Of a stretch of 64,000 nucleotides of DNA, positions 24,243 through 63,410 are shown in pieces. Location of the stretch: the NCBI GenBank assembly GCA_965219245.1, contig OZ244722.1, positions 1,785,212-1,849,211 of the forward strand, in the 5' to 3' direction. Positions within the stretch are counted from its first letter, which is position 1. Each line of letters begins with the position of its first letter. Origin of the DNA: Dehalococcoidia bacterium (GTDB lineage: Bacteria; Chloroflexota; Dehalococcoidia; Lucifugimonadales; VXLM01). The position numbers and the translations under genes were made by a program. The notes under the pieces are model-generated. The model worked only from the letters and a program-made list of their open reading frames with translations, did no database searches and was not told where the DNA came from.

Positions 24243-26423
24243 CTAGCTGTCACCAGCAGCCGACCGAGAAACGGCACAGTTGCATCCACTGCAACCCAGG
24301 CGCAGCAGCGTGCTTGGGTCTCCCGGAATGGTCCAATTAATGTTGGCTGGCATGCCAGTGAACTCAACCAGCGTGGCGTCCTCGCGCCGAGTGGTCAGGC
24401 CACCATCCTTGTAGTAGCCAAGTAGATACTCCGTGCATCCGTCTTCTGTCCACCACAGGGAGAGAATACCCGATCCGGTAGCGCCTTTGGGGTATATGAC
24501 GTAGAACGTACCGTCTGCCCTGGATCCCCTGAGAACCAAGTCGATCGGAGTGCCCACCCACGAACCGTGGTCTTCCTCGAGCTTGAACCGTGGAAATCCC
24601 TCACCCTTGGTCGATTGGTCAGGCCAGCCCAGTTGCGCTTTGAACTGCACCATGGGCGGCGCGGGAGACTCCATCGCGTTGATCCACTCATCGAATGCTG
24701 TGTAGAAGTCCGCTATGGAGAGACCAAAGGCTTCCTCAAAAGCCTGTTGCCAAGTCGGCCGTTCGCCTAGGAGCTTCCAGTAGGTCACGTATGCGTTCTC
24801 TTCCTCGGCCGCCTCCTCAACCAGGAAAGTGGCCGCGATGAAGCTCAAAGCGTAGGAGTGCCACCCTTCAGAACATCCGTGAAAAGCGAACCTGTCCTCG
24901 ATCCTCGCCAGCTCCATCGCCAGGTTTTCCAGGACATCCGACTCCTGTGCACGTTGCCACGCCAAGTCTTCATATGGTGTGTATCTGTCGTTCAGGAATG
25001 GCCTGCCTCCGGGTCTGCTTGGAGAGTATGCGTAGTCGGCATACGAAGCCAGACCTTCCACCAGCCAACTGGGGCCAGGACCGCGTGGGAAGCCCCAGGC
25101 TATCTCGCCACTCTGCAACTGTGCGAGCCCTGAACCAAGTTGCCCTTGCAGAACGTGGAAGTACTCGTGGGCAATGTAATGCTTGAGAGTAGAGAGCGAC
25201 CTGTCAGAGAGATGCCCGTACACTAGACCGACCACTGCCCCTCCCGATGCGGAGGATCCAACCCAACCATGCGTCACCTTCAATCTGTAAGCCGACGAGA
25301 TGTCTGTGCCGGTTACGTCCCGGTACACCGGGGACATCGCCTCATAGTCGACACCGACCAGCACCGTAAATCCTGTCGCCTCAATGCCAAACCGGTCGCT
25401 GAAGTAAGCCCGGGAGTGCTCCATCTCCGCGCGCAGTATCGTCTGGTGCTCTCTCGGAATATCCCCTGCGAATACCCAAGTTGGGGGAGGTGAATCCGCC
25501 TTTGGAACAGGTGTCGGTGTGGCCGTGGCCGTCGGAACAGGCGTAGCCGTGGGAGAAGGCGTGATCGTCTGAGTGGGCGTAGGCGACGGCGTCACGGTCG
25601 GCACGGGTGTAGCCGAGGGTGCGGGCGTGGCTGTCGGCAGGGGCGTCGGAGTCGCCGTAGGCTCCGGGGTTCGGGTAGCTGTCGGCGACGGAGTCGCGGT
25701 CGGTATGGGTGTGGCCGAGGGTGCGGGCGTGGTTGTCGGCAGGGGCTTCGGAGTCGCCGTAGGCTCCGGGGTCTGGGTAGCTGTCGGCTCCGGCGTCGCG
25801 GTCGGTATGGGTGTGGCCGAGGGTACGGGCGTGCCTGTTGGTGTAATGGTAGGGCTTACGGTTGACGTAGGCGTAGCTGTCGGTTCAACTGTGGGGGTGG
25901 GCTCTGCCGACGGTACCAGTGTCGGTTCAAGCGTTGGCTCAGGCGCCGCGTCCGGCGTGGGTTCGGGGGTTGGAGTCGGCTCCGGCGTCGGCTCGGATAC
26001 ATCGGGCAGCGCCTGAGATTTGGCAAGGTTTTCGGCAGCCACGGCTGCTTCGAATCCCGACGATGAAGCAGGCTGACGTGTTACTTCAACTGTTGGTGTT
26101 GCTGTTCTGGTGGGTGTCGGCGTGACCGTGTTGTCCGGTTGAGCAGCCGGCGCCTGATCGGGGCCATTCGACAGGACAAGGACCACCAGCCCGAAGCCCA
26201 GAACGGCGAACGTTGCAGCTATGAACAGGAGCCCGACTGCCGTCCAGGCGCGTGAGAGGCCCAGTGACAGGATGCGTGGCCTCGTGGTCGTGATGCCGGT
26301 TGTGGACCTGCGGGCGGCTCGTTCGATTCTGGGCCACAGGTCGTGGCTGTCAGGAACGGCGAATTGCGCGAGGTCGCTCAGCTGTTCTCGGTTGAGGAAT
26401 TGGTCTATTGGCTGGGCATTCAT
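24243..26423 (-). CDS. Membrane-anchored anti-sigma-factor-like protein with Pro/Thr linker and extracytoplasmic HExxH metallopeptidase-like domain
   Basis: Lies 22 nt downstream of the ECF sigma gene. Short cytoplasmic N-terminus, one TM (AVGLLFIAATFAVLGFGLVVLVL), about 200 aa of (T/E)P(T/S)-rich repeats, then a globular domain with KHYIAHEYFHVLQG. Confidence 0.7.
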   Translation of the reverse strand: MNAQPIDQFLNREQLSDLAQFAVPDSHDLWPRIERAARRSTTGITTTRPRILSLGLSRAWTAVGLLFIAATFAVLGFGLVVLVLSNGPDQAPAAQPDNTVTPTPTRTATPTVEVTRQPASSSGFEAAVAAENLAKSQALPDVSEPTPEPTPTPEPTPDAAPEPTLEPTLVPSAEPTPTVEPTATPTSTVSPTITPTGTPVPSATPIPTATPEPTATQTPEPTATPKPLPTTTPAPSATPIPTATPSPTATRTPEPTATPTPLPTATPAPSATPVPTVTPSPTPTQTITPSPTATPVPTATATPTPVPKADSPPPTWVFAGDIPREHQTILRAEMEHSRAYFSDRFGIEATGFTVLVGVDYEAMSPVYRDVTGTDISSAYRLKVTHGWVGSSASGGAVVGLVYGHLSDRSLSTLKHYIAHEYFHVLQGQLGSGLAQLQSGEIAWGFPRGPGPSWLVEGLASYADYAYSPSRPGGRPFLNDRYTPYEDLAWQRAQESDVLENLAMELARIEDRFAFHGCSEGWHSYALSFIAATFLVEEAAEEENAYVTYWKLLGERPTWQQAFEEAFGLSIADFYTAFDEWINAMESPAPPMVQFKAQLGWPDQSTKGEGFPRFKLEEDHGSWVGTPIDLVLRGSRADGTFYVIYPKGATGSGILSLWWTEDGCTEYLLGYYKDGGLTTRREDATLVEFTGMPANINWTIPGDPSTLLRLGCSGCNCAVSRSAAGDS

Positions 26424-35371: not shown

Positions 35372-35401
35372 CGGTCGGGCTAGCGCGCAGGAGGCACCGA
35401 C

Positions 35402-36220
35402 ATGACTACCCGATGGCGAAAGCTGGGAATCCGAGCGACGGCAGGACTAGCGGTTGCGGCCGCGCCGGTTGCGGCGGCTTGCGGTTCAGGGCCGTCCTAC
35501 GAGGACTGGGCCGAAACGGACGGCGCTGCAGGTCGTATCAACCTCGAGGACGTGCAGAACGCATTCCAGGAGTCCGAGAGCGTTACCGAATTCGAGAAGC
35601 GCGTCAACGAGATATTCGAGGGAGACGGCATTGTCCTCATCAAGGCCGAGCAGACCGACACGGCATTCGTCCTCGAAGGGTGGGAAAACCTGGACGGCAA
35701 CATAAGGATAGACGAGGGGACGGACGAGAAGCTCTTCACCATCACGGAGAAAGATGACAAGAGCCACGAAATGCGAGGCCACCACGCCAACTCCTACTAC
35801 CATTCATCGTTTGGAGCCGGCAACTTCCTGTTTACCTACTTGCTCCTGTCTTCCTTCGCCGGTCCGCGCTACGTGTACGCTACCCCGGCGTCTCGCGTAG
35901 GCACTATACGCAACGAACGGGGCCTCTACCGCAATTCAAGCGGCTACAAAAGCCAGGTCTCGAAGAACGGCTCGTACTTCAACAAGCAGAAGAGCTTTGC
36001 CGGTTCGAGCTACGACTCTGCAAACCGGAATCGCAGCAGCGCCAGGCAGTCCTACCAGTCACGCGCTCGCTCGACAGGCGCTTTCAGGAACAGCGGGACT
36101 GGAGTTCGCAGCAGCTGGGGAACGTCATCGCGTTCAGGCTTCTCTAGCGGCCGCAGCGGCGGTTTCTTCGGTGGGGGTGGCGGACAAACCTTCCTCGGCT
36201 CCACCCGACGCCGCGGTTGA
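35402..36220 (+). CDS. Lipoprotein of unknown function with Ser/Arg/Gly-rich tail
   Basis: AGGAGG SD. Lipobox signal LAVAAAPVAAACGSG, an acidic globular part, then a low-complexity S/R/G-rich C-terminus ending FFGGGGGQ. Confidence 0.65.
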   Translation: MTTRWRKLGIRATAGLAVAAAPVAAACGSGPSYEDWAETDGAAGRINLEDVQNAFQESESVTEFEKRVNEIFEGDGIVLIKAEQTDTAFVLEGWENLDGNIRIDEGTDEKLFTITEKDDKSHEMRGHHANSYYHSSFGAGNFLFTYLLLSSFAGPRYVYATPASRVGTIRNERGLYRNSSGYKSQVSKNGSYFNKQKSFAGSSYDSANRNRSSARQSYQSRARSTGAFRNSGTGVRSSWGTSSRSGFSSGRSGGFFGGGGGQTFLGSTRRRG

Positions 36221-37314
36221 GGCACTTGCCGGACGAAGGGCCGAAATACGCAAAACCACCAGTCTCTCCAGTCGGCCCGTGGAGCGCATCCTCCCTTTCC
36301 GCCGCTGACTCCGAGTTCGTCCTGCAAATCACCCTGGGCGAGATGCCCATCGAGGACGGATTCTGGATAGGCCTGCCTGACGACCTCTCGCGTCTGTCGC
36401 TTCGAGAACTGTTTAGCCGGGTGTTCCCGGGTGACCCCTCTCTCCAACAACTCTTCCTAGAGCGACTCGACATTAGCGGAAATCCAGACCTCCCCGACAT
36501 GTATGAGGCCCTGATCGACATCTTCGTGAAAGAACAGCTGGGACTGTGCGCCGTCGACACCTACGTGAACCACGGCCCGAAGCTCGACGACTCGGCAGCC
36601 ATAGACCAGCGCCTGAACAAGAACGACACCCCGCCTGTGCTCGACCTCGTACTGGAGCAGCGATTCTCGGCCATCGACTACGCCGTGCGGCGCGGGGACT
36701 TCGCCGATCAAGAGGATGCGCTGGCGTGGATGCGTTCGCGAGTGCTGCTGTACTTCCTCGACACGCCCGACTATGCCCTGCTTAGCGATCCTGTCGACGA
36801 TGCCGACGCGGCACTGCTGCCCATAGCACAGACCCTCGTCGAAGAGGGTCTTATCGAACGACCCGCCAAGCCCGGGCCGTTCGAGATCACCGAGTTGGGA
36901 CACGAGACGCTTCACGAAATGACGGCAGAGGTCGAAAACGTGCTCGAACGTTACGAGGTGTTCGGGGACGTTCTCTACGACCCAGAGACGGGCGAATGCG
37001 TCTTTGGCACGGGCGCAGGCATCGATCTTCGCATACCCGTCTACGAAGCGGAGGACCTAAGCCCCGTGCGCGCCGTCCTGCTCGTCGAACTATGCGACGG
37101 CGAACTCGCCCAAATGACCGACGACTGGCGCACCGCCATCCACGACCGCGAGTTCTTCGATGCGCTGCTCCTGCCCGTAGTCGAGCGCCCTCTAGTCGAC
37201 TCGGAGCACCTAGACGCCATCATCGACGCCGGGTTCGAGTTCATGGAGCGGCAGGCCCGCCAAGCATCCCTCGCCGACGAAGACGCCCAACTGCGCCGCT
37301 CCATCGACCTTTAG
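36217..37314 (+). CDS. Hypothetical acidic protein (possible winged-helix segment)
   Basis: Long ORF with coding-like composition. EEGLIERPAKPGPFEITELGHETL resembles a wHTH wing. Start uncertain: TTG 36217 overlaps the upstream stop, with ATG 36343 as the alternative. Confidence 0.55.
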   Translation: MRHLPDEGPKYAKPPVSPVGPWSASSLSAADSEFVLQITLGEMPIEDGFWIGLPDDLSRLSLRELFSRVFPGDPSLQQLFLERLDISGNPDLPDMYEALIDIFVKEQLGLCAVDTYVNHGPKLDDSAAIDQRLNKNDTPPVLDLVLEQRFSAIDYAVRRGDFADQEDALAWMRSRVLLYFLDTPDYALLSDPVDDADAALLPIAQTLVEEGLIERPAKPGPFEITELGHETLHEMTAEVENVLERYEVFGDVLYDPETGECVFGTGAGIDLRIPVYEAEDLSPVRAVLLVELCDGELAQMTDDWRTAIHDREFFDALLLPVVERPLVDSEHLDAIIDAGFEFMERQARQASLADEDAQLRRSIDL

Positions 37315-37392
37315 TAGGTAATGCTGACATCCCAATCATCCCCAACCCAATCCCAAGCAAAACGCGATTGCCCTAGATGATGGGGAAAAGGA

Positions 37393-37752
37393 TCAGATGT
37401 GGAGGACTTGGAGTTTGTCCACAAGCTCTTCGACGTCTCGCAGGCCGTCTTCGACCGCGTCCCGCGTCATCCAGCCCTCGTAGAAGTTCTGGTGGAGAGA
37501 GTTGGCGGAGCGGAATAGGTTGCGCAGGCGCCGGTCCCCGGTCTCGTCGGCCAGGCGGTCGATTGCCGTGTACAGTTGGCGGTGGCCGTCGTGCGACCAG
37601 CCGCGGTGCTCGGCAACGGCCTTGACCGTCTGGGCGGCGGCGCCCCAGCCCTTCTCGGAAGCCTGGAGAAGATCGCCGTCGGCCAGGTAGTCGCCAGCCT
37701 TTGCCATGAAGTGCCGGGCCGTGGTGGTGTGGTATTCGGTGCGAGTGGTCAT
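37393..37752 (-). CDS. PaREP1-like (HEPN-related) helical protein
   Basis: 119 aa. LLQASEKGWGAAAQTVKAVAEHRGW...SANSLHQNFYEGW matches the ASEK.WGA ... LH.NFYE pattern of the archaeal PaREP1 family as I recall it. Confidence 0.5.
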   Translation of the reverse strand: MTTRTEYHTTTARHFMAKAGDYLADGDLLQASEKGWGAAAQTVKAVAEHRGWSHDGHRQLYTAIDRLADETGDRRLRNLFRSANSLHQNFYEGWMTRDAVEDGLRDVEELVDKLQVLHI

Positions 37753-37838
37753 GGAAGGTACCCTTCAGAGACTATTGTAGCAGATGCCTCAACCGCGATT
37801 CGCGTGAAGCGAATGCGATAGCCCTTCGCAAACCCCTC

Positions 37839-38762
37839 CTAGATCGCAAAGAAGAGCACCAGCGACGCGCTGAGGACGATTGCGCCCACGACGAACGCCA
37901 TGCCGACGTTGCGCGCGCCGGCAAGCTCGTCCGCGATCGTCACCTTGGGGAACATCGCCTTGTCGATGACCCACTGGACGACCAGCAGGAGGACGAACCC
38001 GATCACCGCGAACGTAGCGAACGAGATGAGGCTCTCGCTCCACCCGACGAACTCGCCCGTCACCGCCTTGAAGATCACTATCGCGATGGCGATCAGGTTG
38101 GCCGCCATCGCAACGCCGACGGCGACGTTGTTCTTCTCGATCTCATCGTGGATATCGTAGGCAGTGATGACTTGATAAAAGAGCGCGTACAGGACAAGCA
38201 CTCCCATACCCAACAGGAAGAAAGCGACGGAGCGGATGAGTTCATCGAGGACGCCTGGGGCCACGGCTCCAAGCGGGGTGGCGTCGTATCCCGCCAGCGA
38301 TGAAGCAATGACGAGGGCCACTGCTATGTAGACCGCCATCTCGACGGCGCCGCTCCCGGCGTTCTGGTCTTCGATGACCTCCTTCTCGACGCTGAACTTG
38401 AAGAGCACGAGGCGGTCGACCAGGAACCGGGTCAAGTTCAGAACCGCTATGGCCCCCAGTGAGTAGAGGAAGACTTCCAGAACGTCGTACCCGAAGTCGG
38501 CATTGAACTGCCATTCATACTCGCCCCCTGCCGTGAACGGCGTGTATAACACCGCGACGAAGACGATGATGACTCCAAGGAAATATCCCGCGATACTCAG
38601 GCCGAGAGCATTATTGCTCTTCTCGCCAAGCTGGTCGCCAACGTGATATGGAGTGACGAAGTCGAGTATCCACTTGGCGATGTACAGCACGACTATCCCC
38701 AGCGCAACGTACACCAGCCCGCGCGGAAAGTATTCGAGCGTCTCAATGAACGTGTCAATCAT
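37839..38762 (-). CDS. Integral membrane protein with repeated DUF350 domains
   Basis: 307 aa, about 8 TM. Three or four repeats of the pattern (V/I)T.(Y/F)(D/H)..(D/E)(I/L)...N.A.(G/A) (VTPYHVGDQLGEKSNNALGL; ITAYDIHDEIEKNNVAVGV; KVTIADELAGARNVGMAF). Confidence 0.7.
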   Translation of the reverse strand: MIDTFIETLEYFPRGLVYVALGIVVLYIAKWILDFVTPYHVGDQLGEKSNNALGLSIAGYFLGVIIVFVAVLYTPFTAGGEYEWQFNADFGYDVLEVFLYSLGAIAVLNLTRFLVDRLVLFKFSVEKEVIEDQNAGSGAVEMAVYIAVALVIASSLAGYDATPLGAVAPGVLDELIRSVAFFLLGMGVLVLYALFYQVITAYDIHDEIEKNNVAVGVAMAANLIAIAIVIFKAVTGEFVGWSESLISFATFAVIGFVLLLVVQWVIDKAMFPKVTIADELAGARNVGMAFVVGAIVLSASLVLFFAI

Positions 38763-38796
38763 GTTCTTTCTCCCTCAGAACGGCCGGCGATGCCGG

Positions 38797-39369
38797 TTAC
38801 TGCTTGTACACGGTAATGCTGTCCGGTGATACCACGCTGCTGAAGTAGCACTCGTACGGGCGGTCACCGAATTTGTCGATGGACAGGATCGTGCGCTCGT
38901 CCGAGCTCATTAAGTCCCACGTATAGTACCCGATCCCGTCTCCCTGGCCACCCTCGAAGAGAAAGGCCTCTCCGCTGTTGAGATAGTAGAAGTCCCGACC
39001 ATCATACGTGAAGTAGTTGCTCAGGGAGTGCTCCTCGTCGACCTGAGTAAGGTCGTCTCGCGTGAGGTTGAGCGCTTCGAGCGGTATCGGCTCGTTGTCG
39101 TTGGTGACAGAGGTGAAGAGCTGCCCGCCGTCGTTCGACCAGTAGACCCACAGCCTGCGGTCGCCGTCGCCCGCAACCAACTCGTACCACGTGCTGTAGC
39201 TGGTCGCGTACCGGTGCTTTGCCTCGATGAGATAGTAGCCGTCGTCGTACTCCAAGTCGAAACCCATGATGGTGAACACGTCCCCGACAACCGCGTCCCT
39301 GACGCCCTCGGCAAGAGAGGTAGCGCCGGTGAGCTTCTTCTTCTTTCGCCCGAACAGCGACTTTATCAC
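38797..39369 (-). CDS. DUF4178 domain protein
   Basis: Start refined to GTG 39369 (GGAAGGAG 5 nt upstream). GDVFTIMGFDLEYDDGYYLIEAKHRY...WYELVAGDGDRRLWVYW and a second similar half fit the DUF4178 pattern. Confidence 0.6.
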   Translation of the reverse strand: MIKSLFGRKKKKLTGATSLAEGVRDAVVGDVFTIMGFDLEYDDGYYLIEAKHRYATSYSTWYELVAGDGDRRLWVYWSNDGGQLFTSVTNDNEPIPLEALNLTRDDLTQVDEEHSLSNYFTYDGRDFYYLNSGEAFLFEGGQGDGIGYYTWDLMSSDERTILSIDKFGDRPYECYFSSVVSPDSITVYKQ

Positions 39370-39468
39370 GCCTACTCCTTCCCGCCGAGTGCCATTGTAG
39401 ATTCGGGCCAAACTAAGGTCAACCAACCAACTGTTGACGCTACCCCCGTTCCCTGCTACCGTCCCGCC

Positions 39469-40611
39469 ATGTTGGAAACATCCCTACAAAACAAACCGCC
39501 AGCCCACGCCACCCTCACGGCCCCGCAGACGCCGTCATTCGTCTGTCACGTCGACGACCTCAAATGCACGGCGGCGCGCATACGAGAAGCCGCTCGCAAC
39601 GCCGATTGCACCCTCCTCTACTCGGTCAAAGCCAACGCACTCCCCGGAGTTCTGTCCGCCATCACCCCCTTCATCGACGGCTTCGGCGTCAGCTCGCTGG
39701 CCGAGGCGCGAGCCGCCCGAACGGCCCTCGGAGACTCCGGCAGGCTCCATCTCTGCACGGTCGCCGTCCCGCCTCCCGACGCCCAAGAGTTGGCGGACAT
39801 CTGCGACTACGTGACCTTCAACTCGCTCTCCCAGCTTCAGCGGTGGGGCCCCACCTTCACCGGACGCGCCTCGATCGGCCTGCGCGTAAACCCCGGACAC
39901 TCCTTCCTCGACGACCACAGATACGACCCATGCCGCCCTCACACCAAGCTGGGCGTTCCCCTCGACGACCTCGCCGCCTCAGCCGACCGTATTGCCCCAC
40001 TGATCGACGGCCTCCACATCCACTCCAACTGCGACTCAACCAACCTCGGCGAGCTGCTCGAGACCATCCAAGTCCTCGACTCTCGCCTTGGGCATGTCCT
40101 GTCGCAGGTCAAATGGGTCAATCTCGGAGGCGGCTACCTGTTCGACGAAGGAGCGAACCTCGATCCCCTAAGGGAAGCCGCAAGTCTCCTTCGTGACCGA
40201 CACGGCGCGGAGGTCATCATCGAGCCGGGAGCGGCCTTCGTGCGCGACAGCGGCTTCCTTGTGACGTCCGTGCTCGACCTGTTCGAGAGCGACGGCAAGG
40301 AAGTGGCCGTTCTGGACACGACCGTCAACCACATGCCGGAGGTCTTCGAGTACCAGTTCCGCCCCGACGTCCTCGGCCACCGCGACACGGGAGCGCATGA
40401 GTACGTCCTGGCCGGCATGTCTTGCTTGGCGGGTGACATCTTCGGCGACTATCGCTTCGATGATCCGCTGGAGTTCGGATCGCGCATCATATTCTCAAAC
40501 GCCGGGGCATACACTATCGTCAAGGCGAACACCTTCAACGGCATCCCTCTGCCCACCATCTACGAGTTGCGAGACGACGGGAGTTTCGTCGAGATGGCGG
40601 TGGCGTCGTGA
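39469..40611 (+). CDS. nspC: Carboxynorspermidine/carboxyspermidine decarboxylase
   Basis: Start refined to ATG 39469; the upstream part of track ORF 39028.. overlaps the divergent gene. LYSVKAN, FNSLSQL, LRVNPGHS...YDPCRPHTKLGV, GLHIHSNCDS, VNLGGGY, IIEPGAAF, AGMSCLAGDIFGDY and YTIVKANTFNGIPLP follow the NspC/CANSDC family. Confidence 0.85.
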   Translation: MLETSLQNKPPAHATLTAPQTPSFVCHVDDLKCTAARIREAARNADCTLLYSVKANALPGVLSAITPFIDGFGVSSLAEARAARTALGDSGRLHLCTVAVPPPDAQELADICDYVTFNSLSQLQRWGPTFTGRASIGLRVNPGHSFLDDHRYDPCRPHTKLGVPLDDLAASADRIAPLIDGLHIHSNCDSTNLGELLETIQVLDSRLGHVLSQVKWVNLGGGYLFDEGANLDPLREAASLLRDRHGAEVIIEPGAAFVRDSGFLVTSVLDLFESDGKEVAVLDTTVNHMPEVFEYQFRPDVLGHRDTGAHEYVLAGMSCLAGDIFGDYRFDDPLEFGSRIIFSNAGAYTIVKANTFNGIPLPTIYELRDDGSFVEMAVAS

Positions 40612-41996
40612 GGCTGTTCGAGCGCGAGCTTACCCAGACAGCGACGGACGGGCGTATCGGAACGCTCGAAGACATCCGGCGCATGATCGACGGACAACTC
40701 GACACCAATCAGATGCCGATACGTTTCGCCGTCACCGAGTCCTCTCCACACTCCTACCACTACGAGATCGGCATTCTCGAAGGGACAGGGTCTTTCGTCC
40801 CCTCCATGTTCGACCTCCATCCTCGACTCGACGAAAACGTGAGTTCCTTCAACGCGGTGCTCGTCGTGCCAACGGGCATCGGAGCGGAGATCGGCGGTCA
40901 CGCCGGTGACGCGACGCCCGTCGCGCGACTGCTGGCCTCCGTGTGCGACACGCTTATCACGCACCCGAACGTCGTCAACGCCTCAGACCTGAACGAGATC
41001 CCGGACAACGGCCTCTACGTCGAGGGCAGCCTCCTGAGCCGCTTTCTTACGGGCGCCATCGGCCTGAGACCCGTCCGATCAAACCGCGTCCTCGTCATCA
41101 TCGACGCCCACCCCAACGAGCGGTTCGCGCGCGCAACGGTCAACGCCGTCAACGCCGCGCGGGCGACCTATGGACTCCGATGCCCCCGTGTCGTCGTCCT
41201 AGATCCCCCGCTGCCGGTACGCGGCGAGTACACGCCGTCCGGACGCACAGCAGGGACCGTCGAGGACTTGGAACGGGTCTTCGAGGTGCTCGACACCCAC
41301 CGGGGCGAGTACGACGCCGTCGCCCTCTCAACCCTCGTCGACGTCGACGTGCCCCACGAGAGCTACTTCTCCTCGAGGGGCGAGATCGTCAACCCCTGGG
41401 GCGGCGTCGAGGCCATGCTCACCCACGCGATATCAACCCTCTACAACGTGCCGTCCGCCCACGCGCCGATGATGGAGTCGGTCGAGATCGCAAACATCGA
41501 CCCCGGCGTCGTCGACCCCCGCATGGCCGCTGAGGTCATCTCACTCACCTTCCTCCAGTCCGTCCTCAAGGGCTTGCACACCGCGCCGCGAATCGCCGTT
41601 GGCCCCACCGAAACAGCCAGTCTCTCCCCAGCCGGGGGAGAGATACAGAGAGGGGGCCACACCCTCACGGCGAGAGACGTATCCTGCCTCGTTATCCCCG
41701 ACGGCTGCATCGGGCTGCCGACTCTGGCCGCGCTCGAACAGGGCATACCGGTTATCGCCGTCCGCGAGAACCGGAGCCTGATGAGAAACGACCTCACACT
41801 ACTGCCCTGGTCCGACGACCAGCTGCACGTCGTCGAAAACTACTGGGAGGCCGCGGGGGTGATGGCAGCGCTGAAGGAGGGCATGTCGCCTGGCTCCGTG
41901 CGCCGACCTCTGCGCGATGTGCCCATCGAACGCACCCCCACGACCGAACGGTCCAGAGTCGGTCTTCCAACCCCGCCCGGCGGCGTAGAGCAATGA
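40608..41996 (+). CDS. Uncharacterised conserved protein (possibly DUF3326-like), translationally coupled to nspC
   Basis: GTGA overlap with the nspC stop. Gly-rich motif VLVVPTGIGAEIGGHAGDATPVARLLA. The family assignment is from memory only. Carries an in-frame repeat insertion at 41621..41668. Confidence 0.6.
   Translation: MRLFERELTQTATDGRIGTLEDIRRMIDGQLDTNQMPIRFAVTESSPHSYHYEIGILEGTGSFVPSMFDLHPRLDENVSSFNAVLVVPTGIGAEIGGHAGDATPVARLLASVCDTLITHPNVVNASDLNEIPDNGLYVEGSLLSRFLTGAIGLRPVRSNRVLVIIDAHPNERFARATVNAVNAARATYGLRCPRVVVLDPPLPVRGEYTPSGRTAGTVEDLERVFEVLDTHRGEYDAVALSTLVDVDVPHESYFSSRGEIVNPWGGVEAMLTHAISTLYNVPSAHAPMMESVEIANIDPGVVDPRMAAEVISLTFLQSVLKGLHTAPRIAVGPTETASLSPAGGEIQRGGHTLTARDVSCLVIPDGCIGLPTLAALEQGIPVIAVRENRSLMRNDLTLLPWSDDQLHVVENYWEAAGVMAALKEGMSPGSVRRPLRDVPIERTPTTERSRVGLPTPPGGVEQ
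41621..41668 (+). repeat. Palindromic repeat element inside a CDS (translated LSPAGGEIQRGGHTLT)
   Basis: tctctccccagccgggggagaga tacagagaggggg ccacaccctcac. The same hairpin plus tacagagaggggg occurs at 43211..43251, 43825..43866, 52978..53016 and 53190..53228. Confidence 0.8.
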
Positions 41997-42022
41997 CCAC
42001 CGCGCTCCGCGACACGCGGCTA

Positions 42023-42145
42023 CTAGTACTCAGTCAACTTGAATATGACGAACATCCAGGTGCCGATTTATCCCCTCTCCCGTCGTGGGAGAGGGCTAGG
42101 GTGAGGGTGAAACGTAATATCAAAACCATGTTGACATGGTACTAG
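42023..42145. mobile_element. MITE (CTAGTACTCAGTC ... TGTTGACATGGTACTAG)
   Basis: 123 bp, CTAG-bounded, near-identical to 53902..54024. Confidence 0.7.
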
Positions 42146-42285
42146 TACCGTTCCCATTTGAATATGACAGTCGAATAGAGAGGTCGTATCCCCTCTCCCG
42201 TCGTGGGAGAGAGCCTGCCCCGTACTCGATACGGGGGTGAGGGTGTTTCGAGTAAGCTACCAAAATCATTTGGAACAGGCACTAG
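42142..42285. mobile_element. MITE (CTAGTACCGTTCCC ... TTTGGAACAGGCACTAG)
   Basis: Homologous to 27322..27466. Shares CTAG junctions with both neighbours. Confidence 0.7.
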
Positions 42286-42443
42286 TTTCCTGTGTCAGAG
42301 ATTCTTCGAACATATCAGCGCGTGAAAATCCCCTCTCCCGTCGTGGGAGAGAGCCTGCCCCGTACTCCCATACGGGGGTGAGGGCGGCTCCCCGGAACAC
42401 ACCCATCCAATGTATACAATGAACTTCAGAAACAGGACACTGG
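42282..42443. mobile_element. MITE (CTAGTTTCCTGTGTCAGAG ... AACAGGACACTGG)
   Basis: Homologous to 2037..2203. The right terminus is mutated (CTGG). Contains the ATGs at 42410 and 42419 used by the downstream ORF. Confidence 0.65.
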
Positions 42444-44329
42444 AACGGCCAGATTCGACCACCGGTCAACAGCTAGGTGCCGCCCTCCAATACGCCTACT
42501 CGACCTTTTCGACCTACCGTGACCTGTTCGAGGGAGCCGGAGTCGGACTAGACGCGCTTGTCAAGGACGACCCGCTTGCCGTCCTCGAACGGCTGCCGGT
42601 CATCGCCGCCGACACACTTGCGAGGGTGAGCGAAGAGAGCCTCTCGGTCGTCGACGGCATCGTGGACATGGAGACCTCATCCGGCACCACAGGCGTCCGA
42701 AAGAAACGCTTCATCTCCTACGAAGACGACCAAGACGACCACGCCTTCATGGCCGAGCTGTTTCGACTGGCGGGCATCAACGAGCACGACCGCGTGGCCT
42801 GCCTCGATACCGACCCCGTCTACCTGATGGTCTCATTCGCCCGCGCCCTCGATATCCTCGGCGTAGACGAATCATATGTCTACTCCGTAGGCCGCGATCA
42901 GGGCCAGACGCTCGATGCATTGGTGCGACTCGACCCCACCGCGATCTTCGCCGTGCCGTCCATGTTCGAGCGGTGCTGGCCCGCACTCCGCCGGCTCTAC
43001 GACCAAGCAGGACGCGGCAGCCTGAGCAAGGTCGTCTTCCTCGGCGAGCGAGTCCCCCGCCGGCTGAGAGCGCAGTTGGAGTCCGAGCATGGCGTCGAGG
43101 TCTTCAGCTACTACGGCGCAGCCGAGACCTCGTCACTCGGCATCGAATGTACGGCCCACACAGGCATCCACCTCTACACCGACCGCAACCTATTCGAACT
43201 GACCAACACCAATCGTCTCTCCCCCGCCGGGGGAGAGATACAGAGAGGGGGGCGTGAGGTCACCAACAGCCCCCTCTCCCTTGAAGGAGAGGGCCTGCCC
43301 CGTACTCGATACGGAGGTGAGGGTGATCATACCCCCTCTCCCGTCGTGGGAGAGGGTTGGGGTGAGGGTGACCATGCCCCCTCTCCCGTCGTGGGAGAGG
43401 GCTGGGGTGAGGGTGACCATACCCCCTCTCCCGTCGTGGGAGAGGGCTGGGGTGAGGGTGACCATACCCCCTCTCCCGTCGTGGGAGAGGGTTGGGGTGA
43501 GGGTGACCATACTACCCCCTCTCCCGTCGTGGGAGAGAGCTGGGGTGAGGGTGAGACAGCCCCCACCGGAGAAGAGATGCAGACAGGCGCGCTCGCAGAT
43601 ACCAACAATCTCTCCCCCACCGGAGAAGAGATGCAGACAGGCGCGCGCGCAGATACCAACAATCTCTCCCCCACCGGAGAAGAGATGCAGACAGGCGCGC
43701 TCGCAGATACCAACAATCTCTCCCCCACCGGAGAAGAGATGCAGACAGGCGCGCGCGCAGATACCAACAATCTCTCCCCCACCGGAGAAGAGATACAGAC
43801 AGGCGCGCGCGCAGACACCAACAATCTCTCCCCCGCCGGAGAAGAGATACAGAGAGGGGGGCTCGTCGTCACAAGCCTCCTGCAGAAGACCGTCCCCCTC
43901 GTGCGATACTCCCTCGGCGACGAGATAGTCCTGCTCCCCGGCGACTGCCCGTGCGGCCTACCGCACCCGCGAGTCGACGTGCTCGGTCGAGCAGGGGACA
44001 GCTTCGCCATTCTCGGCTCCACGTTCCACTACGACTCGTTCCTGCGCTCGGTCTACAAGAACCTCGACGAGGTCGGCTACATGCAGGTCGTCCTCACGAC
44101 CGAGGCTCAAGATGTCCTCACGGTCCTCCTCCCCGCCGAGATGCACCCCCACGAAAAGCGCATGAAGGACTCGCTCCTCTCCGACCAGCTCGAATTGGAG
44201 TTCCTCCTCACCAGCAAGCTCGCGTCCCTGCGGTTCGACTACGTAGACGAGTCCTACTTCACCGGCTCCCGGAAGATGAAGCTGGTCGATGACCGGAGAC
44301 AAAAGGAGGCAACTGTTCAGACTTCGTGA
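42410..44329 (+). CDS. PaaK / coenzyme F390 synthetase-type adenylate-forming ligase carrying about 650 bp of in-frame repeats (function possibly compromised)
   Basis: N-domain motifs ETSSGTTGVRKK (P-loop), YYGAAETSS and HLYTD. C-terminal GLVVTSLLQKTVPLVRYSLGDEI...CPCGLPHPRVDVLGRAGD. The start lies in a MITE and the stop in another MITE TIR. Repeats occupy 43211..43866. Confidence 0.6.
   Translation: MYTMNFRNRTLERPDSTTGQQLGAALQYAYSTFSTYRDLFEGAGVGLDALVKDDPLAVLERLPVIAADTLARVSEESLSVVDGIVDMETSSGTTGVRKKRFISYEDDQDDHAFMAELFRLAGINEHDRVACLDTDPVYLMVSFARALDILGVDESYVYSVGRDQGQTLDALVRLDPTAIFAVPSMFERCWPALRRLYDQAGRGSLSKVVFLGERVPRRLRAQLESEHGVEVFSYYGAAETSSLGIECTAHTGIHLYTDRNLFELTNTNRLSPAGGEIQRGGREVTNSPLSLEGEGLPRTRYGGEGDHTPSPVVGEGWGEGDHAPSPVVGEGWGEGDHTPSPVVGEGWGEGDHTPSPVVGEGWGEGDHTTPSPVVGESWGEGETAPTGEEMQTGALADTNNLSPTGEEMQTGARADTNNLSPTGEEMQTGALADTNNLSPTGEEMQTGARADTNNLSPTGEEIQTGARADTNNLSPAGEEIQRGGLVVTSLLQKTVPLVRYSLGDEIVLLPGDCPCGLPHPRVDVLGRAGDSFAILGSTFHYDSFLRSVYKNLDEVGYMQVVLTTEAQDVLTVLLPAEMHPHEKRMKDSLLSDQLELEFLLTSKLASLRFDYVDESYFTGSRKMKLVDDRRQKEATVQTS
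43329..43559 (+). repeat. Tandem array, 5 units of 45 bp (one of 48), inside the ligase CDS
   Basis: Unit ccccctctcccgtcgtgggagagggctggggtgagggtgaccata, starting at 43332, 43377, 43422, 43467 and 43515. Translated PSPVVGEGWGEGDHT. This is the MITE hairpin core. Confidence 0.9.
43556..43866 (+). repeat. Tandem array, about 5.7 units of 54 bp, inside the ligase CDS
   Basis: Unit tctctcccccaccggagaagagatgcagacaggcgcgc(t/g)cgcagataccaacaa, starting at 43609, 43663, 43717, 43771 and 43825. Translated LSPTGEEMQTGA(L/R)ADTNN. Confidence 0.9.
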
Positions 44330-44583
44330 GAGCACTCGATAGACGCAGCTATCGTCATACCCCTTTCCCACAACCGTCATACCGGCGAAGAGCCTGCCCC
44401 GTACTCCGATACGGGGCCGGTATCCAGAGGGGCGGGGGGTGGGGTTTGATGGTGTCGATTCTAAGTCCCGCCCCTTTTTACAGATCATGCAAAGGCCTCC
44501 GAAAGAACGTCACCCCGTACCACGATACGGGGCGGGTATCCACAGCGGTGGGGAGTATTCGTCTCATCAACTCTGAACAGTTA
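44309..44583. mobile_element. MITE with 22-bp imperfect TIRs AACTGTTCAGA(C/G)TT..TGAGA
   Basis: Left AACTGTTCAGACTTCGTGAGAG (44311..) versus the reverse complement of the right end, AACTGTTCAGAGTTGATGAGAC (..44583): 18/22 identical. The interior holds two gccccgta..tacggggc hairpin repeats. Confidence 0.55.
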
Positions 44584-44600
44584 CAAAAGGTGCTGCCATA

Positions 44601-45854: not shown

Positions 45855-46250
45855 ATGCGGTACTTGGCCGACACCAATTGGGTCATCGATTACATGAATG
45901 GCATACCCCAAGTCGTCGGGCGATTCGACGAGCTATTGCCGCAGGGGATCGGTCTGAGCATCATTTCGCTTGCCGAGCTCTACGATGGCGTGTACGGTGC
46001 TGCGAATCCCCAGAGTGCTGAACTGGGACTGCAAAGATTTCTCGATGGTCTCGATGAAATAGTGCCACTCGAAGAACCGGTCTGTCGGATTTTCGCCATG
46101 GAGCGTGTCAGATTGCGAACGGCCGGAAACCGCATTGAAGACCTTGACCTCCTGATAGGCTCAACTGCAATACATCACGGACTTACACTGCTCACCAACA
46201 ACCGCAGGCACTTTGAGAGAATGCAGGGCCTGAGCCTAATCTCGGCATGA
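45855..46250 (+). CDS. vapC: PIN-domain ribonuclease toxin VapC
   Basis: MRYLADTNWVIDY (first acidic D), SIISLAELYDG, DLLIGSTAIHHGLTLLTNNRRHF. Classic VapC layout. Confidence 0.88.
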   Translation: MRYLADTNWVIDYMNGIPQVVGRFDELLPQGIGLSIISLAELYDGVYGAANPQSAELGLQRFLDGLDEIVPLEEPVCRIFAMERVRLRTAGNRIEDLDLLIGSTAIHHGLTLLTNNRRHFERMQGLSLISA

Positions 46251-51973: not shown

Positions 51974-52363
51974 CCGTCATTCCCGCCAATAGCCGACTCC
52001 GTCATTCCTGCGAAGGAACGTCACCCCGTACTCGATACGGGGGCTGGGGTGAGGGGCAACCCCAGAACCCAGAACCCTCCCCTCCGCGCTCTCTGCGATC
52101 TCTGTGGTGAATCTCCTCCCCCTCTGCGCCCTCCGCGCTCTCTGCGGTGAATCCTCTTTCACCCACACCGTCATTCCCGCCAATGGCCGACTCCGTCATT
52201 CCGGCGTAGGCCGGAATCCAGCGATCCACCAAGGCGGTACGTGGCCCCACTGACAATTCACATACCTAACACCCAGAACCCTCCTCCTCCCCTCTGTGCT
52301 CTCTGCGATCTCTGTGGTGAATCTTCTCCTCCTCTCCCCCCTCCGCGCCCTCTGCGGTGAACC
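51974..52363. repeat. Dense cluster of hairpin repeats and CTCTGCGGTGAATC-type repeats
   Basis: Two copies of ccgtcattcccgccaat(a/g)gccgactccgtcattcc..., and four or five copies of cc(t/g)ctgcg...ctctg(c/t)ggtgaatc. Confidence 0.8.
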
Positions 52364-52413
52364 CCAAAATCGCGCTTTTGACACGAACGTTCTTATCCTC
52401 TACCATCAATTAC

Positions 52414-53862
52414 ATGACATCACACAAAGACCACCAACTCGACCAACTCGGCATAAACTCCCAGTACGAGGCCGACGAGCTCGAACGAGAGCTCGACATA
52501 CGCTTCGACAGGTTCTCCTACCACGGCCGCGAGGCCTGGGTCCAGCAGAACGCCTACCTCGACGCCTACGCCAACACGCGCGCCGTCTCCAACGCCGCAG
52601 ACACAGCGGGCGTCACCGTCCCCACCGCGCAGGCGTGGAAATTCCTCAACACCCTCGGCTTCAAACGCAGACTCGAAATCGCCGACCTCCGCTTCTCCGA
52701 CAGCCTCCAGGTCATGGCCCTCGAACGCGCAAGAGAACCCGACGCCCCAGCGTCCCTCCTCATCGCTCTCCTTCGCGCCCACATACCCGAAAAATTCTCC
52801 TCCAACGGACACACCTGCGACACCTCAAAGGCCGACGAACTCCTCTTCCTCTACAGCCAGGACGCCAAACGAGAACTCGACGCGGGCCATCCTACCTTCC
52901 GCGCCATCGCCAACGGGACCTACCAACCACCCAACCGTCATACCGGCGGAGGCGGGAATCCAGAGGCGGCCCATTCCAATCTCTCCCCCGCCGGGGGAGA
53001 GATACAGAGAGGGGGATCCTTCCCTGAAAACCAATATGACTCCCAAGAGACCACCCTCCCCCACGACGACATCTCTCCCGACGAACCCGACACCCCCACC
53101 CGTCATTCCCGCGAACGCGGGAATCCAGAGGCGGCCCATTCCAATCTCTCCCCCGCCGGAGAAGACACTCCCCGTTCCAATCTCTCCCCCGCCGGGGGAG
53201 AGATACAGAGAGGGGGATCCTTCCCTGAAAACCAATACGATTCCCAAGAGACCACGCCCCACGACGACATCCACCCCGTCGACCCCGACGAGATCGCCCG
53301 CGCCAACCTCTCCCCCTCACCGGAAGAACACACCTCTTCCCCCTCTCCCGTTGTGGGAGAGAGCCTGCCCCGTACTCGATACGGGGGCTGGGGTGAGGGT
53401 GAGGGTGAAATGCCCCGTCCCCAGAACCCAGCACCTAGCACCCAGAACCCCTCCGCGCCCTCCGCGCCCTCTGCGGTGAATCCCTCCCCAACACCCCAGA
53501 ACCCAGCACCTAGCACCCAGAACCCCTCCGCGTCCTCCGCGCCCTCTGCGGTGAATCCCTCTCCAACACCCCAGAACCCAGCACCTAGCACCCAGAACCC
53601 CTCCGCGTCCTCTGCGCTCTCTGCGGTGAATCCTTCCCCAACACCCCAGAACCCAGCACCTAGCACCCAGAACCCCTCTGCGTCCTCTGCGCTCTCTGCG
53701 GTGAATCCTTCCCCAACACCCCAGAACCCAGCACCTAGCACCCAGAACCCCTCTGCGTCCTCTGCGGTGAAACCAACCCGCCGCCCCATCGCCTCAATAT
53801 TCCAAACACGCAGACCCTCCCAAAACGACGACCCCAACACCTTCAAAGTAACTCGCTTCTAA
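52414..53862 (+). CDS. HTH protein (terminase-small-subunit-like / homeodomain-like N-domain) with a repeat-derived C-terminal tail
   Basis: Start refined to ATG 52414. The N-terminal ~135 aa are paralogous to 54046..54951 (YANTRAVSNAADTAGVTVPTAQAWKFLNTLGFKRRLEIA...LLIALLRAHIPEKF). The remaining ~350 aa are translated repeats. Confidence 0.5.
   Translation: MTSHKDHQLDQLGINSQYEADELERELDIRFDRFSYHGREAWVQQNAYLDAYANTRAVSNAADTAGVTVPTAQAWKFLNTLGFKRRLEIADLRFSDSLQVMALERAREPDAPASLLIALLRAHIPEKFSSNGHTCDTSKADELLFLYSQDAKRELDAGHPTFRAIANGTYQPPNRHTGGGGNPEAAHSNLSPAGGEIQRGGSFPENQYDSQETTLPHDDISPDEPDTPTRHSRERGNPEAAHSNLSPAGEDTPRSNLSPAGGEIQRGGSFPENQYDSQETTPHDDIHPVDPDEIARANLSPSPEEHTSSPSPVVGESLPRTRYGGWGEGEGEMPRPQNPAPSTQNPSAPSAPSAVNPSPTPQNPAPSTQNPSASSAPSAVNPSPTPQNPAPSTQNPSASSALSAVNPSPTPQNPAPSTQNPSASSALSAVNPSPTPQNPAPSTQNPSASSAVKPTRRPIASIFQTRRPSQNDDPNTFKVTRF
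53420..53775 (+). repeat. Tandem array, about 4.7 units of 75 bp
   Basis: cccagaaccc starts at 53420, 53495, 53570, 53645 and 53720. The unit contains the ccctctgcggtgaatcc repeat. Translated QNPAPSTQNPSASSAPSAVNPSPTP. Confidence 0.9.
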
Positions 53863-54045: not shown

Positions 54046-54951
54046 ATGCCCTCCCTATACGAAACCCTAGGCATCTCATCCCAACTAGAAGCCGCCGAGC
54101 TCGAACAGGACCTCGGCATCCGCTTCGACGACTTCACACCCGAAGACGCCGACACATGGATTCGCCAGACCCTCTACCTCGGCCAGTACGCCAACACCCG
54201 CACCTTCACTCACGCCGTGCGTGAAGCGGGCGTCTCCCTTCGCCACGCCAGAACATGGCAGACCGAAAACACCCTCGGCTTCAACCAACGCCTCCAAATA
54301 GCCGTCCTCGAATACACCGAAGAGATCGAGGTCCTTCTCTTGGAGCAAGTCCGACAGCCCAAACCCTCCCCCGCGCTCCTCGCAATGCTCCTCCGAGCGC
54401 ACCTCCCCGAAAAATACGGCCCCGCGCGCCGCCAAAGCGCCCCGCGGGCCAGCCACTCCGACCACGACGACGACCCCAAGCCGGAAACCTCCCAAGACGA
54501 CCGTGAATCCCTAGACGACATCCGCCAAGACCTCCAACAACTCAACCAATTCGCCGGCCTCACCGACCCTACCTCCAATCTCTCCCCCGCCGACCTACCA
54601 CCCGTAGGGGCAGGTTTCAAACCTGCCCCCGATCCCTCCCCCACCGGAGAAGACACGTCCCATCCCAATCTCTCCCCCAACGGAGAAGACACTTCCCATC
54701 CCAATCTCTCCCCCGCATCCTCACACCCCTCCGCGCCCTCCACATCTTCCCCCTCTCCCGTCGTGGGAGAGACCTGGGCTGAGGGCGATCTGCCCCATCC
54801 CCAGCACCCAGCACCTAACACCCAGAACCCTCCCCTCACCCGCCGCCAACGCCGTCAACTCCAACGAAAACAACGCAAACAACGCAAGGCCCCGCGCCCC
54901 GATGCGCGGACCAAACAACCCAACTCCCACCGCCCACGCGCCCCCAACTGA
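54046..54951 (+). CDS. HTH protein, paralog of 52414..53862, with repeat-derived and basic C-terminal tail
   Basis: YANTRTFTHAVREAGVSLRHARTWQTENTLGFNQRLQIAVLEY...LLAMLLRAHLPEKY. The tail contains LPPVGAGFKPAP (palindrome gtaggggcaggtttcaaacctgcccc), PSPVVGETW and RRQRRQLQRKQRKQRK. Confidence 0.5.
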   Translation: MPSLYETLGISSQLEAAELEQDLGIRFDDFTPEDADTWIRQTLYLGQYANTRTFTHAVREAGVSLRHARTWQTENTLGFNQRLQIAVLEYTEEIEVLLLEQVRQPKPSPALLAMLLRAHLPEKYGPARRQSAPRASHSDHDDDPKPETSQDDRESLDDIRQDLQQLNQFAGLTDPTSNLSPADLPPVGAGFKPAPDPSPTGEDTSHPNLSPNGEDTSHPNLSPASSHPSAPSTSSPSPVVGETWAEGDLPHPQHPAPNTQNPPLTRRQRRQLQRKQRKQRKAPRPDARTKQPNSHRPRAPN

Positions 54952-59523: not shown

Positions 59524-60417
59524 AGTCGGCGCCTCCTCCACTGTTTGTGCGTACCCTCGGCAGGGCGGTCGTATGGTATCACGGGGTGAGAGAGCATACG
59601 GCCGAGCTCAGACGGAGAGCATGCGGTCGTGAGACAGACTGAGATTTTGGGACAGTTTGAGATGTCTTCCAGATCTCCTTCTTTTCTCCTTGTCCCAACT
59701 TGTCTCGCCCGTCCCGATGGGGCGTTTTGAAGCTGTTTCGACGAGACGCACCCGGCAGGCGATGCAGTGGTGAGACAGTATGTGACAAATCCCGCATGGC
59801 TAGATTTTTCCGCTCTCGTTCTCATTTTGTCTCGCGACGTTTCACGGGTCCGGGCAAGGCGGCATGAACCCGCTTCCACGACGCAGTTAGTGTAGAGCGT
59901 ATGTTCTCTTAATTCAAGTTTGGTGTTGGATTCACCTAATGGGCGCGGAGAACGTGGAGCGATAAAATGGGGTTTCCGCGCTCGGAGACCTTTGCGGTAT
60001 CTGCCCAAGAATTGTCATTCCGAGCGCAGCTGGGTACGCTCAGGTCTCTACTATCACTACGCCTTCAAGAGAATCCACTGACAGGCTGCATACCCAGAGC
60101 GTTGGTGGACAATCCAAACCTTGAACTGGCTTTGCACTAAAAGTCGATGTTGGTGCAAAAGTCGGTTGGCCTGATTGGCTTGGGAGCTATATACTTGGCG
60201 ATCCCGTGAAGCAAGAACAATAAGGGACTCAGGTGGCAAAATAAGCAATCCCAGGGTACTTACTCGTAGTACCTCAACTCTTCTAGGCGTCGGCGGGCCT
60301 CGTCTAACTCCGCTTGGGTGAACAGGCAATGCCACTGAGGATTGTCTGAAATCGCGGCTTCAAGAGTTAAGTCCAGCCGCCTACACTCCTAAAGTTCATA
60401 GAAGCCAATGGAAAAGC

Positions 60418-63045: not shown

Positions 63046-63120
63046 CCCCTTCCTCCTTCTGGGTGGTGGCTTATCGCTGTCTTCCCGTTCCTGGACAGCG
63101 TTCGGAGTAACCGCTCTGCG

Positions 63121-63303: not shown

Positions 63304-63333
63304 TATTGGTAACTCCTTTCACGAGATACCACC

Positions 63334-63380: not shown

Positions 63381-63410
63381 ATTGGTAGTTACTACAAAGG
63401 AGTCGCACCC

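Follow-up and report, generated by a model that had tools for sequence, protein, structure and literature searches.

A short dispersed hairpin repeat read in one frame inside genes of a Dehalococcoidia bacterium

The window, a stretch of 64,000 nucleotides of contig OZ244722.1 from a Dehalococcoidia bacterium, holds four genes that carry copies of one palindromic element: a DUF3326 gene (40608-41996), a PaaK-like ligase gene (42410-44329) and two paralogs resembling the small subunit of terminase (TerS-like). The features are collected in Table 1. Exact copies of the element start at 41621, 43216, 52980 and 53181. Degenerate copies are at 43609, 43663, 43717, 43771 and 43825, forming a 54-bp tandem array, at 53145 and, in the fourth gene, at 54669 within a 36-bp array. 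All are on the plus strand within four plus-strand ORFs and all read L-S-P-x-G-x-E. Allowing up to three mismatches, the 23-nt pattern TCTCTCCCCNGCCGGGGGAGAGA was matched 15 times in the window; none were expected from 100 dinucleotide-preserving shuffles. This bore out the original prediction that a palindromic element is repeated in frame in unrelated genes. The single orientation and frame (LSPxGGE) that it had claimed were confirmed for all copies in the window, although its positions 43211, 52978 and 53190 were slightly off the measured 43216, 52980 and 53181.

Table 1. Element copies and associated inserts in the window.
Feature	Position	Strand	Basis or context
In-frame insert in the DUF3326 gene, 48 nt (16 codons), TASLSPAGGEIQRGGH	41613-41660	+	empty-site homologs
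Hairpin core of the DUF3326 insert, 35 nt	41621-41655	+	
In-frame insert in the ligase gene, 660 nt (220 codons)	43202-43861	+	alignment to orthologs L108, L110 and L109
Element copy A in the ligase, RLSPAGGEIQRGG	43216-43253	+	
Tandem array 45 bp x 5.2 of a second hairpin family, PSPVVGEGWGEGDHT, within the ligase insert	43316-43554	+	TRF, translation
Tandem array 54 bp x 5.5 of degenerate element copies, NLSPTGEEMQTGARADTN	43560-43857	+	ends in copy B
Element copy B in the ligase	43825-43862	+	
Element copy in the linker of TerS-like protein 1	52980-53017	+	ORF 52357-53862
Truncated copy NLSPAGEDTPRS, then full copy (53181-53218), same linker	53145-53218	+	within a 201-nt duplication
Element remnants in the linker of TerS-like paralog 2	54573-54714	+	ORF 54046-54951

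The full element, (AA)TCTCTCCCCC-GSC-GGGGGAGAGA-YAC-AGAGAGGGGG, has a core of 38 nt, and the inserted unit comprises 48-54 nt. A pyrimidine/purine stem of 10-11 bp encloses a loop of 3 nt, with a predicted hairpin energy of -20.8 kcal/mol. The purine tail 3' of the hairpin is a mirror repeat of the purine arm. Because the central loop base varies (C in 125 copies, G in 28), orientation must be set by the purine tail. Stop codons are absent from all six frames of the element. Stem and mirror tail displayed no compensatory changes, which speaks neither for nor against a hairpin or a triplex as the copies are too alike for a covariation signal. An intramolecular Y-R-R triplex at the purine mirror tail may be speculated upon. 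Rfam 15 returned no match at gathering score across the whole window. A CRISPR array, an intein, an intron and a Shine-Dalgarno role were rejected from the sequence, as was an intrinsic terminator, the T run being absent.

Among the matches listed, more than 107 stretches in 7 Dehalococcoidia/Chloroflexota MAGs contain the exact pattern. In Logan contigs word depth was about 1,500 over the element versus about 20 for unique DNA. A JGI metagenome scan yielded one match, and the L112 locus (21 kb, another genome) contained no full copy. Judging from record names, e.g. MAG APA_bin_48, the host clade appears to be sponge-associated. A k-mer map revealed no intergenic copy of the element in the window; other repeat families fill nearly every intergenic spacer, and a composite repeat containing the element, described below, is not present. 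Tandem arrays in this intergenic DNA have periods of 123, 105 and 30; as periods of 28 and 211 also occur, the multiples of three are not significant.

The product of the first gene matches Pfam DUF3326 (4e-95, aa 82-431). In a 21-homolog alignment, empty homologs of 452 aa with 83-88% identity read VGPxE-MSQxD-TLTARD, and the window protein reads VGPTE-TASLSPAGGEIQRGGH-TLTARD. Every one of the more distant homologs in the alignment is without it. The predicted gain of about 16 codons stands, but the TLT that had been counted as insert is ancestral. At the DNA level L109 has an insert of 54 nt; in the window this insert is present as well, and a deletion of 24 nt comes after it. L108 and L110 are empty. 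A neighbor-joining tree, drawn without bootstrap support, mixes filled and empty alleles in the shallow clade. The empty alleles are not excision products because the ancestral MSQxD is retained; polymorphism or recombination is the more likely source of the mixture. In other relatives this loop carries different hairpin families, e.g. ..VRPELVEGQ.., and an LSPAG copy has its loop split by NSPLSLEGE and PSPVVGEGWGEGD units.

L074 is syntenic with positions 35384-42007 of the window at about 84% DNA identity and has the DUF3326 copy. Compared with this regional identity, the 35-nt core differs between genomes at only 1-2 positions. Selection on the peptide alone does not account for such invariance; it may stem from gene conversion, from selection acting on the hairpin or from a recent replacement. 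Logan contigs from four public runs span the copy, therefore it is not an artefact of one assembly. The same insert is present in at least three independent assemblies and in short-read contigs. An AlphaFold2 model computed from the 21-sequence alignment was too poor for placing the insert (mean pLDDT 47), and a search for a relative in the PDB found none.

In the ligase, about 11 ancestral codons were replaced by an insert that consists, in this order, of copy A, two other hairpins, the 45-bp array, the 54-bp array and copy B. After it the reading frame continues into the 155 conserved C-terminal residues. Syntenic orthologs have 425-426 aa (L108 and L110, empty) and 510 aa (L109, plus 85) compared to 639 aa in the window (plus 220 codons). 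Close homologs with empty sites thus identify the segments in both DUF3326 and the ligase as insertions, as had been claimed. The ligase is related to PaaK (PDB 4r1l, E=1.2e-15), and the insert aligns with the 'IDPETGEPVPEGEIGE' excursion of PaaK, a loop before the YRTRD motif. Hairpin pairing decays among the copies of the 54-bp array. A protein search with the 221-aa insert gave 4 weak matches, of no use for a frame census. The array lengths in the window rest on a single assembly, and short contigs break at every repeat; 'joints' of Logan contigs in the ligase arrays are repeat-induced ambiguities. At the 5' end, 400 nt of stop-containing repeat are inserted after codon 11. The ancestral ATGA start at 41993 is split off and the body now opens at ATG 42410. 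In L109 the operon overlap is intact.

dN/dS was determined pairwise on both sides of the DUF3326 and ligase inserts and was 0.09-0.33, with one short segment at 0.52. Downstream of the inserts both proteins resume in frame with at least 80% identity. The two hosts are under purifying selection. Because its 5' end is lost and dN/dS is slightly raised, the ligase of the window may be decaying.

The protein at 52357-53862, originally read as an HTH protein, and that at 54046-54951 are paralogs whose N-terminal domains match phrog_4044, a family of phage terminase small subunits (6e-7 and 2e-8); neither had a match in Pfam. The family has 92 database members of 181-349 aa, and the sole source name is Dehalococcoidia hypothetical protein. 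IMG/VR gave zero matches for both the element and the TerS-like protein. Members share an N-terminal domain starting MTSHKD, and ATG 52414 is the likely start of TerS-like protein 1. The conserved C-termini are of two types, ..RPIASIFQTRRRPQxDDPNTFKVTRF* or ..RRQRRQLQRKQRK..RAPN*, the former basic like the latter. Between the conserved ends lies a hypervariable linker of hairpin-repeat peptides, and conservation of the C-terminus indicates in-frame read-through of this linker. Among the loci examined and the window there are eight TerS-like homologs. Several have the element or 12-aa NLSPxxGE units in the linker. In addition, four or five further hairpin families, each abundant between genes, are represented in the linkers. 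In paralog 2 the loop of one left arm is interrupted by a GTAG-type hairpin (NLSPA, then DLPPVGAGFKPAP), followed by the 36-bp array NLSPNGEDTSHP. One window copy is 185 aa longer than a relative with a 98%-identical N-terminal domain; it contains the 201-nt duplication and a 75-nt x 4.6 array, both multiples of three.

For a census beyond the window, 155 tail-oriented copies from 110 loci of related MAGs plus the window were sorted by the coding potential of their 300-nt flanks. In place of a gene finder, scores came from a home-made codon log-odds model trained on 270 long ORFs. About 101 of the 155 copies had no coding ORF running through them, 29 were located just upstream of genes in the stop-to-stop extension, and 17 had coding flanks on both sides in one frame. 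The remaining 8 were 'C-tail' copies, most in shadow ORFs; those in L014, L063, L080 and L095 lie in such ORFs and were dropped as genic copies. Upstream copies stand, for instance, before the starts of genes for Mfd, MutL and an Ldh_2-like protein, names which we take from reading the translations. In a check that does not depend on the coding threshold, 30 of the 155 copies were in no ORF of 100 or more codons in any frame. Almost a third (47/155) belong to a fixed non-coding composite, ..GACGAAGAATCTACAA-[element]-GTCTTCGCAATTCAACTCAC.., in which the LSP frame typically meets stops 9 codons upstream and 20 codons downstream. Non-genic copies are as well conserved as genic ones. Orthologous upstream copies are retained across species, and 22 of the 29 upstream copies are in sense and 7 in antisense orientation, counts that include orthologous duplicates. 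Intragenic copies outside the window are found in a BirA-like gene of L009, between its two Pfam domains, and in orthologous uncharacterized proteins of L094 and L046, where they are reversed and in frame; L046 has a 72-nt x 5 array.

The original prediction held that the element exists only within ORFs. This is correct inside the window, yet it is not a property of the family because most census copies lie outside genes. An excess of intergenic copies had been named as evidence against the prediction, and in the survey of relatives and window most copies are indeed intergenic.

LSPxGGE is the reading of all 17 copies that are flanked by coding sequence on either side; 14 of them are in forward and 3 in reverse orientation. 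Forward internal copies read ..NLSPAGGEIQRGG.. and the three reverse ones (L094/L046) read ..PSLYLSPGGGE..; the core peptide is the same in either orientation because the core is palindromic. After removal of orthologs and tandem copies only about 7 independent intragenic events remained, a small number (DUF3326, ligase copy A, ligase copy B, the BirA-like gene, the L094/L046 protein and at least two TerS-like lineages), and 7 of 7 used one frame (binomial p=4.6e-4). In contrast, the 29 upstream copies were split 10:9:10 over the three core frames; therefore the element is not in itself tied to any frame. The frame rule appears only where a copy forms part of a protein. Stop codons cannot explain it because there are none in any of the six frames. 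Furthermore, every intragenic insert and all array periods (45, 54, 75, 36, 72 and 201 nt) are multiples of three nucleotides. Exceptions to the frame rule were seen only in the disordered linkers of the TerS-like family. P0127 has a compensated frameshift, NLSPRRGERYREG, and reads another frame over part of the element. P0125, P0127 and P0131 terminate with SLPRRGRDTERGLLP* without the conserved C-terminus. The inserts are probably translated: a repeat that is frame-free when untranslated and frame-locked in genes constitutes indirect evidence of translation. The original view that the element does not behave like a neutral REP is thus upheld as far as the single, non-random core frame in genes is concerned, but not for the family, as most copies in relatives are intergenic and upstream copies use all frames. 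The constant frame most plausibly reflects selection that filters an otherwise REP-like element, rather than a separate kind of element.

We propose, with a probability of roughly 70%, that this is a REP/MITE-like hairpin repeat of which genes keep only those insertions that are multiples of three, fall into loops or linkers and are in the LSPxGGE frame. The element would be a short, non-autonomous, dispersed repeat which multiplied in a sponge-type Dehalococcoidia clade. It would insert anywhere, most copies ending up in intergenic DNA and often nested in other repeats. Because it is open in all six frames, insertion into a gene would not automatically be lethal. Selection in genes would then retain inserts of 3n length in surface loops or disordered linkers in the L-S-P-(A/G)-G-G-E frame. 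One alternative frame may be rejected because its product, SPP(P/A)GER, holds a polyproline/PPG motif. Motifs of this kind are known to stall ribosomes. The other would yield the strongly basic SLPRRGRD; by contrast, LSPAGGE is small and flexible. A resident insert grows: other hairpin families enter it, often in the loop, and slippage lengthens it by tandem arrays whose steps are always multiples of three. This growth can be seen directly in the ligase insert, which forms a series of 0, 85 aa and 220 codons across relatives, and in the TerS-like copy with its added 185 aa. The expected product is a flexible loop rich in Pro, Ser, Gly and Glu, made by the ribosome.

Mobilization presumably is by an enzyme acting in trans. 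Filled and empty pairs (DUF3326 and the intergenic pairs L016/L005 and L088/L001) have fuzzy junctions; the ends are not sharp and a target-site duplication is not resolvable. A possible ACG duplication at a junction was seen in one case only. About 27 of about 47 ORFs of the window were scanned with Pfam. Among these we found neither a Y1 transposase nor a cognate transposase linked to the element; one IS630-type DDE_3 (2540-3628) abuts a different, 123-nt repeat. A more far-reaching version of the proposal would have the element adapted to genes, as an orientation-independent 'coding palindrome', with active maintenance of its hairpin in ORFs at the nucleotide level and a loop that is a landing site for further hairpins. 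Together with its sister families it would then be a general generator of disordered loops and linkers of up to 220 residues in sponge-symbiont Chloroflexota. We consider this unlikely.

Alternatively, the intragenic copies may be kept for a function, either as a hairpin which slows translation or directs processing, or as an adaptive, length-variable disordered loop with S-P motifs that is useful in the sponge host. The DUF3326 core is near-invariant although synonymous sites are free to change, the same loops were hit repeatedly, and upstream copies are retained across species with a sense bias. However, gene conversion among hundreds of copies would also homogenize the core, the orientation counts contain orthologous duplicates, close relatives lack the insert, hairpin pairing is being lost in the ligase array and the hosts are functionally unrelated. 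Retention for function therefore seems to us quite improbable. The direction of transfer might also have been the opposite, NLSPxGGE being native to the TerS-like linker and copied from there as a coding cassette by recombination in frame, with intergenic copies decayed or secondary. The eight TerS-like homologs, several with element or NLSPxxGE units, and the constant genic frame would fit. Yet the non-genic majority, including the 47-copy composite with its fixed flanking stops, is equally conserved, and upstream copies use all frames. Moreover, since the linkers hold other intergenic hairpin families, they look like recipients, not sources; an origin as a coding cassette is very doubtful.

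The insert might never be translated, being instead excised from the mRNA or skipped by the ribosome. In favor of this, the hairpin is stable and lies in ORFs, the DUF3326 insert of L109 may be flanked by an ACG...ACG codon pair, and the nucleotide core is more conserved than the coding flanks. T4 gene 60 and the mitochondrial 'byp' elements are short GC-rich hairpins inside coding sequences. Such bypass elements need not keep to multiples of three or to one frame, and stop codons are frequent in them. Here all inserts are 3n and in one frame, no stop codon follows the take-off site, and 660 nt is, to our knowledge, far beyond all known bypass gaps. The constraints on length and frame argue against bypass or RNA excision and point to ordinary translation, which makes a skipped insert highly improbable. 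The disrupted 5' end of the window ligase, repeats that are open in several frames and array lengths taken from one assembly raise the question whether the hosts are pseudogenes, or long-read misassemblies of repeats, that stay open only since the repeats lack stops. We give this hardly any credit, as dN/dS downstream of the inserts stays well under 1, the frame is regained in the C-terminal parts with an identity of at least 80%, the DUF3326 insert recurs in independent assemblies and short-read contigs, and the L109 ligase combines an 85-aa insert with an intact operon overlap.

A filter on a REP-like repeat has several implications. The concept of selfish DNA inside protein-coding genes, known from Rickettsia and a few bacteria rich in REPs, is extended to uncultured Chloroflexota associated with sponges. 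The system contains a clean internal control, the element being frame-free where untranslated and frame-locked in genes, and this suggests a filter at the level of the peptide or the ribosome. Repeat invasion and slippage have here added more than 200 residues to an enzyme loop with the frame kept, a concrete route to new disordered segments. Finally, repeats of this type distort gene calls in MAGs by creating hypothetical proteins, long tails and false N-terminal extensions; because they inflate gene calls, annotators should mask them.

In-frame palindromic repeats in genes are already known; what is new is this family and its host clade. No description of such repeats in sponge Chloroflexi turned up in a literature search. 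Rickettsia palindromic elements (RPE; Ogata 2000, 2002) are, according to the summary in PMC10969869, situated between genes and in frame inside unrelated housekeeping genes; there, RPE-1 is given as about 100-150 bp, several families coexist per genome and the surface of the protein is assumed to tolerate the inserted peptide. A CGTC end is found in some RPE families (PMC3733652). The present element likewise is a dispersed palindrome (more than 107 stretches in 7 MAGs among the matches listed, hairpin at -20.8 kcal/mol) with in-frame insertions in DUF3326, the ligase, the BirA-like gene, the L094/L046 protein and the TerS-like family. It differs in being shorter (38-nt core, 48-54-nt unit), without CGTC and without sequence similarity, and in a host of another phylum and lifestyle; in addition, the inserts nest and reach 220 codons. 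MITEs such as ERIC, BOX and Correia are small non-autonomous repeats which sometimes carry an open frame through the host gene and have terminal inverted repeats, target-site duplications and related IS (PMC10969869). The element is much shorter, and none of these three features could be established for it.

Intragenic REPs of the GTAG/CGTC super-families (Di Nocera et al. 2013) have 20-40 bp, are mostly extragenic and encode 20-30 aa. They occur as singles, dimers or groups, hit the same site in several related genomes and are notable in Opitutus terrae and in repair genes (PMC3733652). Similarly, the element is an imperfect palindrome of high copy number, extragenic in about 101 of 155 cases with a minority in genes. 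In contrast to these REPs it has a purine mirror-repeat tail, a RAYT was not seen with it among the scanned ORFs of the window, and the consensus AATCTCTCCCCCGCCGGGGGAGAGATACAGAGAGGGGG bears neither a GTAG nor a CGTC tag on either strand. It is a new hairpin family that resembles REPs but lacks their tag, has in-frame copies in genes as RPEs do, and belongs to neither known family. Other hairpin families of the window, GTAGGGGCGATTCGC... and GTAGGGGCAGGTTTCAAACC..., do carry GTAG.

The LSP element, a 38-nt hairpin-forming dispersed repeat that is read LSP(A/G)GGE inside genes, varied very little. In the DUF3326 gene its 35-nt hairpin core (window 41621-41655) showed just 1-2 differences between genomes in the comparisons with L109, a relative with a filled DUF3326 site, and L074, a locus syntenic with this part of the window. 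Synonymous positions of the core had not drifted. The near-invariant core stands against an overall DNA identity of about 84% in the region syntenic between the window and L074. Over all loci, variation at each stem position was limited to fewer than 10 copies. At the centre of the loop, 125 copies have C and 28 have G, and the change from C to G switches the peptide residue from Ala to Gly. The split could come from a hot spot or from the palindrome having flipped.

Nested insertions also interrupted the LSP hairpin within its 3-nt loop, NLSPA|DLPPVGAGFKPAP (window 54573-54628) and LSPAG|PTNSPLSLEGE... (homolog protein P0021). The loop may be a favoured landing site for insertions. L020, a locus from a related MAG, has a transcription-repair coupling factor gene that carries a related hairpin peptide pair (SHPSPAGGRTNDLSHPSPGGGRTKEGG) in frame in its late part; the ORF was called Mfd-like from reading of its translation. 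The LSP element proper sits upstream of the start of this gene.

A different type of repeat was present at the 5' end of the PaaK-like ligase gene. At window 41993-42409 the ancestral ligase start (ATGA) and the first 11 codons are retained; the ATGA overlaps the DUF3326 stop, the same arrangement as in relatives. About 400 nt of MITE-like repeats with a unit of about 123 nt (ACTAGTACTCAGTCAACTTGAATATGA...) split these codons from the remaining gene. The block contains stop codons, and the gene presently opens with ATG 42410. The same repeat of about 123 nt flanks the IS630-type transposase and recurs at window 31195, 42023 and 53902; it probably represents a family of MITEs belonging to this IS. 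In four public runs word depth was 4,000-19,000 over the intergenic repeats at window 41968-42451 and 44267-44600 and about 20 over unique sequence. These repeat families are present in hundreds of copies across the metagenome.

Hairpins of the GTAG-tagged type formed a 105-bp x 3.6 array built of GTAGGGGCGATTCGCGAATCGCCCCTAC; GTAG-tagged GTAGGGGCAGGTTTCAAACCTGCCC was read in frame as PVGAGFKPA within the linker proteins. The latter belong to a multi-copy, terminase-small-subunit-like gene family (window 52414-53862 and 54046-54951; also L004, L005, L026, L040, L046, L067 and L112), the genes of which are frequently a neighbouring pair. A terminase-small-subunit-like N-terminal domain is followed by a hypervariable linker of hairpin-repeat peptides and a conserved basic C-terminus. 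The family (92 proteins) is confined to this clade. In each copy that was inspected (window copy 1, L004, L046), a CGCCCTCTGCGGTGAATCC-type motif precedes the gene. That these proteins might handle the repeats is pure speculation.

Further features of the window
Feature	Position	Strand	Remark
IS630-type transposase	2540-3628		DDE_3 + HTH
~123-nt repeat	2200-2287 and 3625-3870		both sides of the transposase (region 2200-3870)
GTAG-tagged REP-like hairpins	7221-7342, 17653-18032, 54590-54628		canonical
726-codon ORF	24243-26423	-	coding score very low (0.07 bits per codon)
PIN-domain protein	45855-46250		possibly toxin of a toxin-antitoxin pair
Restriction-modification protein	60418-63045		fused N6-methylase/Eco57I-like/HSDR_N, 875 aa

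The 726-codon ORF had no Pfam match, contains a 102-bp x 2.5 repeat (25582-25838) and may not be a real gene. GC content was 50-53% in window 60001-64000 compared with about 61% elsewhere; this segment is possibly an acquired island.
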